Part shown: positions 38,212 to 41,102 of the stretch, piece after piece
How positions within the stretch are numbered: the first letter of the stretch is position 1
Layout of the letters: every line of letters starts with the position of its first letter
From: a virus
DNA: 42,344 bases
Reading direction: 5' to 3' (one strand)
IMG/VR virus record: IMGVR_UViG_3300045988_117928
Span: 1-42,344 of that record
Program-made: the position numbers and the translations under genes
The notes under the pieces: model-generated
What the model saw: the letters and a program-made list of their open reading frames with translations, nothing else
What the model was told of the DNA's origin: nothing
Database searches by the model: none

Positions 38212-38832
38212 TTATTGAGAGCGCCAGCGGGCTTGGCCGTCCGGGCCGACGGAGCAGGTCATAGGTGCGCCGTTCTTACTGACTGCTGTTCCTCCACCTG
38301 AGCAGTAAGCCCCTGGGGTTACGTAGTATTCCTGCTGCTCAGGAGCCGGCGCGGCGGGGGCTGGTGCTGGTTCTGGTGTAGTCGCCGGCTGCTGCGCCAT
38401 CATCTGAGAAGCACACTGCTGTGTCCAACCGCTCGAACCGTCGGTGAAGAATGTCGTCCCGGTCTCATGTAAAGCGGGGTCGCCGCAGGATGCCACAGTT
38501 TTATTCATTTCGGATGGTTCTGCCTGACCTGGGGCTTCGGTGTACTCGGTTGGGCGCGCCGACGTGGACTCGCCTCCACCGGGTGAAGCGGTAGGTTCGG
38601 TCGTTTGCTCGAGTGCGGGGTTAGGGCTGTTCTTTGGGCTTGGTGATTCAGACGGAGAATCAGTGGTGGATTTAGTGGATGTGGTGCTTGACGGCGAAGA
38701 CGTTGATGTCGAACTGGTCGACATGTTGTTGCTTGATGGGGCGGGGGCGTTGTTTGATCCGCAGGCAGCGGCGAACGGAATTGCGGCGCAGGCTGCGATG
38801 ATGAAGGCTCGTTTGGTGGCGTGGGCGGCCAT
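38212..38832 (-). CDS. Secreted lipoprotein with Ser/Thr/Pro-rich linker and C-terminal Cys-containing domain
   Basis: 206 aa. SD AAAGGAACC. Signal peptide plus lipobox (FAAACGS). Low-complexity STP-rich linker. The C-terminus YYVTPGAYCSGGGTAVSKNGAPMTCSVGPDGQARW is DUF3761-like. Confidence 0.5.
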   Translation of the reverse strand: MAAHATKRAFIIAACAAIPFAAACGSNNAPAPSSNNMSTSSTSTSSPSSTTSTKSTTDSPSESPSPKNSPNPALEQTTEPTASPGGGESTSARPTEYTEAPGQAEPSEMNKTVASCGDPALHETGTTFFTDGSSGWTQQCASQMMAQQPATTPEPAPAPAAPAPEQQEYYVTPGAYCSGGGTAVSKNGAPMTCSVGPDGQARWRSQ

Positions 38833-38972: not shown

Positions 38973-39374
38973 TCATGCTCGTGCCCTCTCGAACAATTCC
39001 CGCCACACTTTCAACAGGTGGGTAGTGACACCTAATTCCCGGGCTATGGCCCCAGTGTGTGGTCCGTAGATTGTTTCCGCTGCGGCGTACTCGGTGGGGG
39101 AGATGAGTAGCTCGGCGGCTATCTGGTCTGCCGCGCGTTCTGCCCTGGCGTCAAAATGCGGGCTACCGGAGGGGGTGTCGCCCCGGATTGCGTGAGCCAA
39201 CTCGTGGGCTAGGGTGCAGCGCCGGTTTACAGCGCCGAGTGTGGGGTCGAGCAGGATTAGCCGATTGTGGTGGATGTACCCGCCGAGGTCGCCGGGGTGC
39301 AGGTGCCCGTGGTGGTCGTCCTCGACGGTGATGCCTAGGGTTTCGGCTAGTTGCTCAAGCTCCGTCTCCGTAAT
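38973..39374 (-). CDS. ImmA/IrrE-family zinc metallopeptidase (anti-repressor protease), apparently starting at ATT
   Basis: Translating the open frame beyond the track TTG start gives ...LAETLGITVEDD...GYIHHNRLILLDPTLGAVNRRCTLAHELAHAIRGD...AERAADQIAAELLISPTEY, with the HEXXH motif HELAH. The frame is open from 39491 but has no ATG/GTG/TTG upstream of the HEXXH. A strong SD GGAGGAAGGAG lies 6 nt before the ATT at 39374. Confidence 0.5.
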   Translation of the reverse strand: MTETELEQLAETLGITVEDDHHGHLHPGDLGGYIHHNRLILLDPTLGAVNRRCTLAHELAHAIRGDTPSGSPHFDARAERAADQIAAELLISPTEYAAAETIYGPHTGAIARELGVTTHLLKVWRELFERARA

Positions 39375-39861
39375 TGTCGTCTCCTTCCTCCGGTTCCGGC
39401 TTGCCGCGTTTGGCGGCGTATCTGAGATGTGTATCAGGTTGGGCGGATTGGGTGTTCGAACGGTGTGCGTCGAGGTTGGTGACGGGTGCGTCTATGTTTT
39501 CGTAGTCGATGGCTTCGCCGGTTGGGTCTCCGAATAGGTACAGCGCTTCCGGGTCGGAGCGACGCATGATCTCGTCGAGCAATTGCTGGTTGCTTGCATT
39601 GTGTAGCGCGAAGGGGATTCCTACTCCTTCGGCTTCCCATTCGCGGAGGTATCCGGTTTCGATAAGGCCGGTAACGGGAGAGCGGTTGTAGCCGCGGCAC
39701 AGCGCTATCACCATCTCAGGGCGGAAGGTTCCGCGTGACAGTTGCCGGGAGAGGGTCGATTCATTAATCCCTGATTTTTGGGAAATTACTTTCTGCGTGT
39801 CATCGCCAGCCAATTCCTTGAGCCATGCGGTGAAGTTCGTTGTATTGCTCATGGAAATCAT
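39355..39861 (-). CDS. XRE-family HTH repressor (CI/ImmR-like)
   Basis: HTH: QKVISQKSGINESTLSRQLSRG. Start is ATG at 39861 (MISMSN) or 39852. Acidic C-terminal tail. Sits upstream of and overlaps the ImmA-like gene. Divergent from the Cro-like gene. Confidence 0.65.
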   Translation of the reverse strand: MISMSNTTNFTAWLKELAGDDTQKVISQKSGINESTLSRQLSRGTFRPEMVIALCRGYNRSPVTGLIETGYLREWEAEGVGIPFALHNASNQQLLDEIMRRSDPEALYLFGDPTGEAIDYENIDAPVTNLDAHRSNTQSAQPDTHLRYAAKRGKPEPEEGDDNYGDGA

Positions 39862-40031
39862 GATATTGCAATCTGCCGGAAGTGGCAATAAGTGCAGCAT
39901 ATTGCATATAGCGGGGGTGGCAACAAGGGGTGTCTTGTAATTACGGTATTGCAAGACGCCGGATAATCCGGCACTATGAAATCACTGGCGCAGGGAAGCG
40001 CTGGAAAGAAACTTTCAGAGGAGGGAACCCC
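39862..40031. promoter_or_regulatory. Divergent promoter/operator region of the immunity switch with ATTGCA-containing repeats
   Basis: atattgcaat (about 39864-39873), catattgcatat (about 39897-39908) and the inverted repeat gtcttgtaattacggtattgcaagac (39932-39957) lie between the repressor and cro starts. Confidence 0.5.
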
Positions 40032-40325: not shown

Positions 40326-41102
40326 ATGTCAGAACTGATTCCGATTCAGGACAGCGGTGGGGTTCAGGCGGTCATGGGCCGCGACCTCCACGCATTCCTG
40401 GAAGTTGGTGCCGAGTATCGGCACTGGTTCCCACGTATGGTCGCATACGGATTTGAAGAGGGGAAAGACTACACGGTCAAAATTGACCGGGTACAAGACT
40501 CTCTCGGGCGTGAGCGCGAAGCCATGAACCATGTCATCAGTCTGGATATGGCGAAGGAAATTTCCATGATCCAGCGCACCGACAAGGGCAAGCAGGCTCG
40601 TCAGTACTTCATTGAGTGTGAGAAGCGGTACCAGGCTGGTGAGATGAGCGAGCTTGATGAGGCGAAGCTTGTCCAGAGAGCTCTGCAAATCACCTACCGC
40701 CAAGTGCGGGAACTGGAAGCTGTAAACGCTGAAATGCAGCCGAAGGCTAGCTACTTCGATGAGTTTGTGGCGGACGAGGATCTTATTCAATTCCGGACTT
40801 TGGCGAATCAGCTGGAGATTAAAGAGTCCGCGCTTCGTCAAATCCTGATTGACCATAAATGGATTTACAGGGTTGAAGGTAAGCGCTGGTCAAACAAGCG
40901 CAACAAGATTGTCAATGTTTATCAGTATCGGGCGTATGCGGAAAAGAAGCCTCTGTTCCGGTTGGTGCCTTGTCATGAGGCACCGCGGATTAATGGCGAG
41001 GTGCAGCAGTCGCTGAAGCTTACTCCGCGCGGGGCGGAGGCGGTCACGAAGGCTGTGAAGAAGTGGCTGCGGGGTCCGTCGGTGGAGAAGAAGTCAGCGT
41101 AG
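40326..41102 (+). CDS. Phage antirepressor (Bro-N / KilAC-type)
   Basis: 258 aa. The N-terminus MSELIPIQDSGGVQAVMGRDLHAFLEVGAEYRHWFPRMVAYGFEEGKDY is typical of AntA/KilAC antirepressors. Confidence 0.7.
   Translation: MSELIPIQDSGGVQAVMGRDLHAFLEVGAEYRHWFPRMVAYGFEEGKDYTVKIDRVQDSLGREREAMNHVISLDMAKEISMIQRTDKGKQARQYFIECEKRYQAGEMSELDEAKLVQRALQITYRQVRELEAVNAEMQPKASYFDEFVADEDLIQFRTLANQLEIKESALRQILIDHKWIYRVEGKRWSNKRNKIVNVYQYRAYAEKKPLFRLVPCHEAPRINGEVQQSLKLTPRGAEAVTKAVKKWLRGPSVEKKSA

Follow-up and report, generated by a model that had tools for sequence, protein, structure and literature searches.

An immA-like gene without a canonical start codon in the immunity operon of a Corynebacterium phage, and its probable initiation at AUU

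Among the described systems closest to the locus reported here are two repressor-protease pairs. In the element ICEBs1 of Bacillus subtilis, a helix-turn-helix (HTH) repressor, ImmR, is encoded in one operon with a small HEXXH protease of the M78/COG2856 type, ImmA, which cleaves the repressor on activation and whose amounts are controlled (PMC5812530). The pair in Deinococcus is IrrE (PprI) and DdrO, and two reports describe cleavage of the C-terminal region of an XRE repressor by an IrrE-type protease (PMC6868357, PMC12828697). We analyzed the viral record IMGVR_UViG_3300045988_117928 over its whole length of 42,344 nucleotides (nts), here called the window, to which all unmarked coordinates refer. 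Its source is a temperate Corynebacterium phage, and its minus strand carries an immunity region typical of such phages. The second gene of the immunity operon is of the ImmA/IrrE type and has lost its ATG. We conclude that it is probably translated independently of the repressor, as a protease of 133 amino acids (aa), from a noncanonical codon, the likeliest being the AUU at 39374.

As in ICEBs1, an HTH repressor gene is followed in one operon by a gene for a small HEXXH protease, and the module lies beside an integrase gene and diverges from the lytic (or, in ICEBs1, transfer) genes. Unlike in ICEBs1, the protease gene of the window overlaps the 3′ end of the repressor gene by 20 nt, has its ribosome-binding site (RBS) within the sequence for an acidic tail of the repressor, and has no canonical start. 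The sequence similarity to ICEBs1 is at the family level only, and cleavage, signal, and substrate are proposed here by analogy. With IrrE, the protease shares the HEXXH motif and a Glu downstream of it, and the structures 3DTI and 8SLN were its best matches (TM 0.61 to 0.64 on the query). IrrE is distinguished by its length of about 240 aa, an extra GAF-like sensor domain, a chromosomal location, and a canonical start.

Near-cognate AUN start codons behind strong or extended Shine-Dalgarno sequences are known from infC and pcnB of Escherichia coli and cvfC1 of Staphylococcus aureus (AUU) and from ccpN and infC of S. aureus (AUA). In these genes, the start is conserved among relatives and keeps the level of a regulator low. 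AUU and AUA starts behind an extended Shine-Dalgarno sequence gave ∼10% of the output of AUG in S. aureus reporters (PMC13009471), and rare AUU, AUC, and AUA starts are acknowledged for mycobacteria (PMC9094748). The window gene differs from the E. coli and S. aureus genes in that its use of AUU is a prediction, the codon is also fixed by the overlapping gene, and an ATG allele co-circulates. Two groups of Corynebacterium genes are also close. In phages StAB (gp28-gp29), Stiles, and Adelaide, the repressor and peptidase genes overlap as they do here, and the peptidase gene starts with TTG (TTG ACG ATT); unlike the window, StAB-type genes keep this canonical start 9 nt after the Shine-Dalgarno sequence. 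The Corynebacterium amycolatum genome CP066023.1 (proteins QPR32088.1/QQB83889.1) has an allele identical to that of the window, with a GenBank start at the homologous ATT and a product of 133 aa.

The protease gene and its lost start codon

The peptidase frame is open on the minus strand for 172 codons, from 39491 to the stop codon TGA at 38975 to 38973. The first ATG, GTG, or TTG in this frame is the TTG at 39200 to 39198, which is the Leu codon of the HELAH motif (H, 39206 to 39204; E, 39203 to 39201; L, 39200 to 39198; A, 39197 to 39195; H, 39194 to 39192); the 97 codons ahead of HELAH include no ATG, GTG, or TTG. Because this TTG lies within the motif, the 75-aa open reading frame (ORF) that the gene track starts there lacks both the first His and the catalytic Glu and is a catalytically dead fragment. 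A preliminary description of the window had given the frame as about 170 codons with no ATG, GTG, or TTG before the motif and had noted that the track start deletes the first His. Both statements held, and the loss extends to the Glu.

Read from the ATT, the gene (38973 to 39374, minus strand) encodes 133 aa that belong to the ImmA/IrrE (Peptidase_M78) family by profile, by the HEXXH motif, and by the N-terminal protease fold of IrrE. The product matched PF06114 (Peptidase_M78) with 52.5 bits against a cutoff of 22 (E = 5.5e-14), and residues 4 to 130 matched the metallo-protease family PHROG 87 (E = 6.2e-24). An AlphaFold2 model of the 133 residues had a pLDDT of 95.9; helix 1 (residues 3 to 12) comes right after the ATT, which is 2 residues ahead of it, and is followed by a three-stranded sheet and then by the HEXXH helix. 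The best Foldseek matches in the PDB were IrrE (3DTI), PprI (8SLN), and an HTH-COG2856 regulator of Mycobacterium tuberculosis (6CZ6), each with a probability of 1.0 (E = 2e-4 to 4e-4; TMq, 0.61 to 0.69). In the zinc-binding and catalytic motif HELAH (39192 to 39206), H57, E58, and H61, numbered from the ATT, were invariant in our two alignments, A1 and A2. Glu79 (39138 to 39140), a candidate third zinc ligand by analogy with IrrE, was invariant in 10/10 and 44/44 aligned homologues, so that all four residues are invariant among the 44. The gene lies directly downstream of, and co-oriented with, the HTH repressor gene in the lysogeny module, as in the ImmR/ImmA type.

Because the structural genes of the window are only ∼74% identical to those of phage Juicebox, close comparison required IMG/VR, metagenome, and genome loci; a megablast search with the immunity region against GenBank phages gave no match. 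We gathered 100 distinct relatives of the peptidase gene from GenBank phages, IMG/VR, and GTDB genomes. In about 88 of the 100, an ATG, GTG, or TTG lies between −8 and +5 codons from the position of the window ATT. This clustering, together with the model, places the natural N terminus here and not at the track TTG or far upstream.

The four nearest IMG/VR relatives (79 to 84% protein identity) have an ATG two codons upstream of the ATT, which the preliminary description had missed. Where these relatives read GAGGAGGGCG ATG ACG ATT, the window reads GAGGAAGGAG ACG ACA ATT. Over a longer span, the four relatives, two metagenome loci, and locus L112 have CAGAGGAGGGCG ATG ACG ATT ACG GAG ACG GAG CTT GA, and the window has CGGAGGAAGGAG ACG ACA ATT ACG GAG ACG GAG CTT GA. 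ATG stands at the ACG position in L026 to L029, L112, L119, and L120, and the proteins P0004, P0006, P0007, and P0145 begin MTITETELEQ. Because the nearest relatives have ATG there, the ACG of the window (39378 to 39380, minus strand) is a mutated ATG. A canonical start is the ancestral state because the wider relatives begin ATG ACG ATT or, in the StAB type, TTG ACG ATT; the ATT is thus codon 3 of the ancestral protein. (Aligning the TTG of StAB with the ATT of the window was considered and dropped, since a comparison of TTG ACG ATT with ATG ACG ATT places the TTG at the ACG.) The T>C change at 39379 turns GAT into GAC, both Asp codons, and is synonymous in the repressor frame.

Upstream of the ACG is the Shine-Dalgarno region GGAGGAAGGAG (39381 to 39391, minus strand). 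For duplex calculations, we used what we take to be the 3′ tail of actinobacterial 16S rRNA. The best duplex, AGGAAGGAG (39389 to 39381), has 9 bp and −13.0 kcal/mol and ends 0 nt before the ACG and 6 nt before the in-frame ATT (39372 to 39374), the proposed AUU initiation codon. In the ATG type, the duplex AGAGGAGG (8 bp, −12.7 kcal/mol) ends 3 nt before the ATG; the StAB duplex (8 bp, −12.1 kcal/mol) ends 9 nt before the TTG; and that of phage SamW (−13.1 kcal/mol) ends 6 nt before an in-frame ATT. The positions given in the preliminary description, a strong Shine-Dalgarno sequence GGAGGAAGGAG 6 nt upstream of an in-frame ATT at 39374 and overlapping the last repressor codons, were confirmed. 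Between GGAGGAAGGAG and the ATT is ACGACA; the ATT lies 17 nt upstream of the repressor stop codon (TGA, 39357 to 39355), and the two genes overlap by 20 nt (39374 to 39355), with the peptidase in the +1 frame of the repressor. The pattern AGGAG-N5-8-ATT occurred once on the two strands of the window, at this site; because ∼2.8 occurrences are expected by chance, the motif alone is unremarkable. Estimated from that density, the probability of an in-frame occurrence within 3 codons of the start of the homologues is ∼2e-4. Folding of the RNA from 39430 to 39290 gave no structure beyond that of shuffled sequences (z = −0.39), which argues against both a frameshift stimulator and occlusion of the RBS.

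Third-codon sites of the repressor alter the second-codon position of the peptidase frame and therefore show where peptidase or translational constraint begins. In seven ACG-type sequences, variation at these sites affected 11 of the 12 codons immediately ahead of the Shine-Dalgarno sequence and 0 of the 11 codons from the Shine-Dalgarno sequence through to the stop; it was back right after the stop. A 36-nt block that includes the RBS, the start, and the overlap is thus conserved between variable flanks. Compared with the divergent sequence L110, the flanks differed at ∼14/44 and 11/24 positions (hand count), and the block differed at 1. The Shine-Dalgarno sequence of the ACG type was invariant in 7/7 sequences at repressor-synonymous sites, and the peptide encoded in the peptidase frame upstream of it was not conserved. 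Canonical starts farther upstream in relatives were rejected as candidates: they are at scattered positions that differ from relative to relative (−11, −29/−30, −33, −35, and −39 codons), none has a strong Shine-Dalgarno sequence (there is one weak AAGG only), and none exists in the window. The pattern of constraint argues for a functional RBS and an independent start at or just past the Shine-Dalgarno sequence.

The portion of this block that precedes the ATT, made up of the Shine-Dalgarno sequence and the ACG codon, occurred as only two alleles, GAG GAG GGC GAT and GAG GAA GGA GAC, and no intermediate alleles were present in 13 sequences. An exact-pattern scan of IMG/VR and JGI metagenomes for any allele of this cassette (GARGGNGAYGACRAT...) returned only ATG-type copies and added few new data.

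The ACG allele, GAGGAAGGAG ACG AC(A/G) ATT, was found in L106, L107, L108, L109, the independent metagenome contigs L110/L111, and L113, which is the chromosome of C. amycolatum CP066023.1. It was also present in a second prophage of the same genome and in proteins of Corynebacterium sp. 5QC2CO and LK26. A protein search gave five clusters, from 90% to 60% identity, of products with ...R(N/Q)RRKETTITETELEQLAETLG, the signature of the ACG allele. All of the ACG-type copies have an intact ORF and the HEXXH motif, and their peptidases are 60 to 90% identical to that of the window. Pairwise ratios of nonsynonymous to synonymous divergence (dN/dS) among ACG-type genes were 0.10 to 0.27, with dS from 0.3 to saturation; these values support purifying selection on the ORF. 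No decayed ACG-type copy was found among the relatives compared. The preliminary description had offered a freshly inactivated immA as one explanation. The homologues do have a canonical ATG that is mutated here, but a fresh knockout is contradicted by an ACG allele that is common to intact ORFs with low dN/dS down to 60% protein identity. Because many related prophages carry this allele without a start in an intact gene, low-level synthesis of the protease from the nearby ATT is probable.

One protein, P0023, like P0019, looked like a decayed copy. Its locus, L114, shows that P0023 belongs to a prophage remnant next to a tRNA; this is a deletion remnant that shares the peptidase gene over no more than its last ∼230 nt, and, as it is not point-decayed, it has no bearing on decay of the ACG allele. 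Along with the peptidase end, L114 keeps the first two of the ORFs that separate the protease and integrase genes in the window (products of 206 aa and 133 aa); a tRNA-like sequence and a CopD gene are adjacent.

A second lineage resembles the first. In the independent lineage of phages SamW, Lederberg, and Bran, TCG stands where StAB has TTG; this T>C change is also silent in the repressor, and the canonical start seems to have been lost here a second time, independently. An in-frame ATT lies one codon upstream of the TCG and 6 nt after GAGGAGG, which is suggestive of the same solution. Two more distant IMG/VR loci, L048 and L049, also have no canonical start within −8 to +5 codons of their aligned N terminus (...GGGGGGAATGGGGGT TCG ACA CGT...).

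Initiation at AUU and the alternatives

The events that we propose are as follows. The ancestral ATG has become ACG in this lineage by a substitution without effect on the protein encoded by the overlapping repressor gene. The repressor and protease genes would be co-transcribed from a promoter-like site ahead of 39852, and ribosomes would initiate weakly at the AUU within the last repressor codons, behind the 9-bp AGGAAGGAG; the product would begin (f)M-TETELEQLAETLG. The weak start would give a low ratio of protease to repressor. As ImmA does with ImmR and IrrE with DdrO, the protease would cut the repressor in response to an inducing signal, and prophage induction would follow. Four parts of this scheme are ones that we infer: the fact of translation, the use of AUU in preference to ACG, a low output with an effect on the induction threshold, and the repressor as the substrate.

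A start at the ATT is supported by the lack of a canonical alternative, by a strong Shine-Dalgarno sequence at a functional spacing, and by a position no more than 2 codons from the starts of relatives. AUU is the likeliest codon because of this geometry, the ATT in SamW, the precedents for AUU and AUA, and the GenBank start in C. amycolatum. The AUU-initiated, low-level expression offered in the preliminary description is thus the best-supported reading by comparison, and a probable one.

Several points weigh against initiation at AUU. Both translation and the N terminus are deduced from comparison of sequences, and we found no measurement of AUU efficiency in Corynebacterium in the literature. 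The ATT is invariant in 11 sequences, yet it is fixed anyway by the repressor codons (D/N)AT-TAC; because it is locked by these (D/N)-Y codons, its conservation alone is uninformative. The low dN/dS could be partly imported from ATG-type donors because the two types recombine, and the two RBS-start alleles may reflect one historical event and not coadaptation. An upstream GGAGG lies 6 nt before the ACG and makes initiation at ACG geometrically possible. Finally, the ATT start in GenBank is an annotation choice that RefSeq contradicts, and public annotation of this gene is too unstable to be evidence.

In C. amycolatum, QPR32088.1/QQB83889.1 begin MTETELEQ... at the ATT at L113:3064 (gene, L113:3001-3465). 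Elsewhere the same gene is a RefSeq protein of 154 aa starting from a CTG 21 codons upstream, an nr entry of 93 aa, or, according to metagenome gene callers, a protein of 162 to 172 aa starting from arbitrary upstream ATGs. The GenBank starts of SamW and Lederberg are at a truncating GTG, and for Bran the GTG chosen lies within the repressor gene, 149 nt in.

A more speculative extension, to which we give about one chance in four, is that the two discrete combinations of RBS and start in temperate phages of Corynebacterium (amycolatum group) produce different doses of ImmA and therefore different induction thresholds, with the AUU allele sensitive to initiation factor 3 (IF3) and the SamW lineage convergent. 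In one allele, the ATG lies only 3 nt after the Shine-Dalgarno sequence; in the other, the ATG has become ACG and the 9-bp Shine-Dalgarno sequence would be repositioned 6 nt before the AUU. This two-allele cassette would be written into synonymous sites of the C-terminal tail of the repressor. If so, the alleles would set different thresholds for spontaneous and stress-driven induction, and sensitivity to IF3 would link induction of the prophage to the condition of the translation machinery.

The alternative that survives best, although we consider it improbable, is that the ACG-type gene is effectively untranslated, a silent or decaying immA that looks intact because of its recent origin and recombination with ATG-type relatives. 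The canonical start is indeed lost, with no other in the open frame, and recombination between ATG- and ACG-type phages is evident in L112, in which an ATG-type junction is joined to a peptidase body like that of the ACG clade. In addition, the window has an AntA/ANT antirepressor gene, so another route to induction is possible. A silent gene does not readily account for at least seven distinct sequences, down to 60% identity, that retain the intact ORF, the HEXXH motif, and the dN/dS values given above. Nor does it account for a Shine-Dalgarno sequence that is invariant at repressor-synonymous sites when neighboring sites vary at 11 of 12 codons, or for the finding that the only truncated copy, L114, is a deletion remnant and that no decayed ACG-type copy turned up.

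Somewhat less probable is initiation at the mutated ACG itself (39380), by way of the upstream GGAGG (39391 to 39387), which would give a product of 135 aa. In bacteria, ACG reportedly initiates far less well than AUU, AUA, or AUC, a result ascribed to Hecht et al. in 2017. The codon sits exactly at the ancestral start position, the spacing in GGAGG-N6-ACG is acceptable, and the ACG is kept in 7/7 ACG-type sequences; however, retention of the C is also the neutral expectation. The strongest anti-Shine-Dalgarno duplex, of 9 bp, abuts the ACG with a spacing of 0 nt, and in L110/L111, the upstream element is reduced to GAGG.

A start far upstream is very unlikely. The candidate is the CTG at 39437, from which RefSeq models the C. 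amycolatum homologue (WP_332259391.1) and which would add an N-terminal extension of ∼21 aa. This CTG is conserved, but because of the (A/P)-D codons of the repressor. No Shine-Dalgarno sequence precedes it, the extension peptide is not conserved (11 of 12 codons differ among sequences at repressor-synonymous sites, the second positions of peptidase codons), gene callers choose a different upstream start for each relative, and the modeled domain needs no extension.

The weakest alternative, a programmed +1 frameshift near the repressor stop (GGA GCU UGA G) that would yield a repressor-ImmA fusion, was also raised in the preliminary description, and we give it hardly any weight: the GCU in the P site cannot re-pair on CUU, the site is not slippery, RNA folding showed nothing significant around it, and relatives initiate independently at their own ATG, TTG, or GTG starts. 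The features that recommend it are the +1 peptidase frame with its 20-nt overlap, the GGAG repeats just upstream of the UGA, an overlap that is 100% invariant in 11 sequences, and the existence of fused HTH-M78 proteins such as M. tuberculosis 6CZ6 among the fold matches. The frame, the UGA at the junction, and the upstream GGAG motifs recall +1 frameshifting in prfB. In prfB, the Shine-Dalgarno-like motif is 3 nt upstream of the P-site codon; in the window, the GGAG abuts that codon, so the spacing is wrong, and the CUU-U slippery codon is absent. The invariant overlap is explained by dual coding, and it is found equally in ATG-type relatives with a start of their own. Moreover, the geometry of the junction is not conserved. 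StAB-type relatives have a different overlap sequence, of 11 nt; the genes overlap by 8 nt in IME1320_01 and do not overlap in phi16, Juicebox, and Sleepyhead; and in phi16, IME1320_01, and Juicebox, only 0 to 9 codons upstream of the start are open in the peptidase frame.

If the gene is translated from AUU, the consequences are mainly for annotation and for lysogeny. No new mechanism is implied, since non-AUG initiation and ImmA modules are both known and one public record already implies the ATT start. A defined start would correct the annotations of a group of Corynebacterium phages and prophages, including the SEA-PHAGES phages SamW, Lederberg, and Bran. The ratio of ImmA to repressor plausibly determines how easily a prophage is induced, and the coexistence of a conserved weak-start allele with an ATG allele would amount to a natural experiment on how the stability of lysogeny is tuned in skin-associated and clinical Corynebacterium.

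The repressor gene and neighboring ORFs

The minus-strand gene order is repressor (39852 to 39355), peptidase (39374 to 38973), and tyrosine integrase (37244 to 36168). The opposite strand carries a Cro-like ORF and the AntA/ANT antirepressor gene (40326 to 41102), and the window contains no tRNA genes. StAB, SamW, phi16, and Sleepyhead share this gene order.

The HTH immunity repressor (39355 to 39852, minus strand; PHROG 16278/3949, E = 7e-25) has 165 aa from the ATG at 39852 to the TGA at 39357 to 39355. In-frame alternative starts are the ATGs at 39861 and 39900. The C. amycolatum protein QPR31872.1, to which the repressor is near-identical, is annotated by NCBI from the Met equivalent to 39852 (165 aa), and the longer calls, which begin at 39861 or 39954, probably overextend the gene. 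A scan for promoter consensus sequences found 4 sites versus 0.9 expected. One of these, TTGCCA-17 nt-TATCAT at 39860 to 39888 (minus strand), is a candidate promoter for the repressor-peptidase operon on the strength of the consensus scan only. Because its −10 element ends 7 nt ahead of the ATG at 39852, the repressor mRNA may be leaderless.

The 26-codon C-terminal tail of the repressor, DTHLRYAAKRGKPEPEEGDDNYGDGA (39358 to 39435, minus strand), holds the RBS and start of the peptidase gene in the +1 frame. We compared tails in the window, L026 to L029, L106 to L113, L119, and L120. At least five unrelated N-terminal HTH modules share the tail DT(H/R/S)L(R/D)Y(A/V)AK.G.PEPEEGDD(D/N)YGDGA*. 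Because the same tail is on unrelated HTH modules, it seems to recombine together with the protease gene as a unit. That the 26-aa tail is a docking or cleavage element for the protease is speculative. The repressors of StAB and SamW have a looser form of the conserved tail. In L028 (L028:987-2402), a long HTH repressor of ∼330 aa runs in frame into the peptidase, so that one ORF exceeds 440 codons. In L119, this long repressor ends normally in the conserved tail, and L028 therefore differs from it by an apparent frame change near the tail. Either a natural fusion of repressor and protease or a mistake in assembly could account for the long ORF.

Downstream of the peptidase gene, the window has a 26-codon ORF (38976 to 38896, minus strand) whose start overlaps the peptidase stop as ATGA. 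L106, L112, and L113 have a 262-aa gene at this place, which the window seems to have lost or replaced. Between the protease and integrase genes are two ORFs, at 38832 to 38212 and 37865 to 37359 (minus strand), with N termini that by eye are lipoprotein-like (...AAACGSNN and ...IVTACGADE), and a small membrane-like ORF. These lipoprotein-like and membrane-like ORFs had no match in Pfam or PHROG; the ORFs between protease and integrase may be moron-type cargo.

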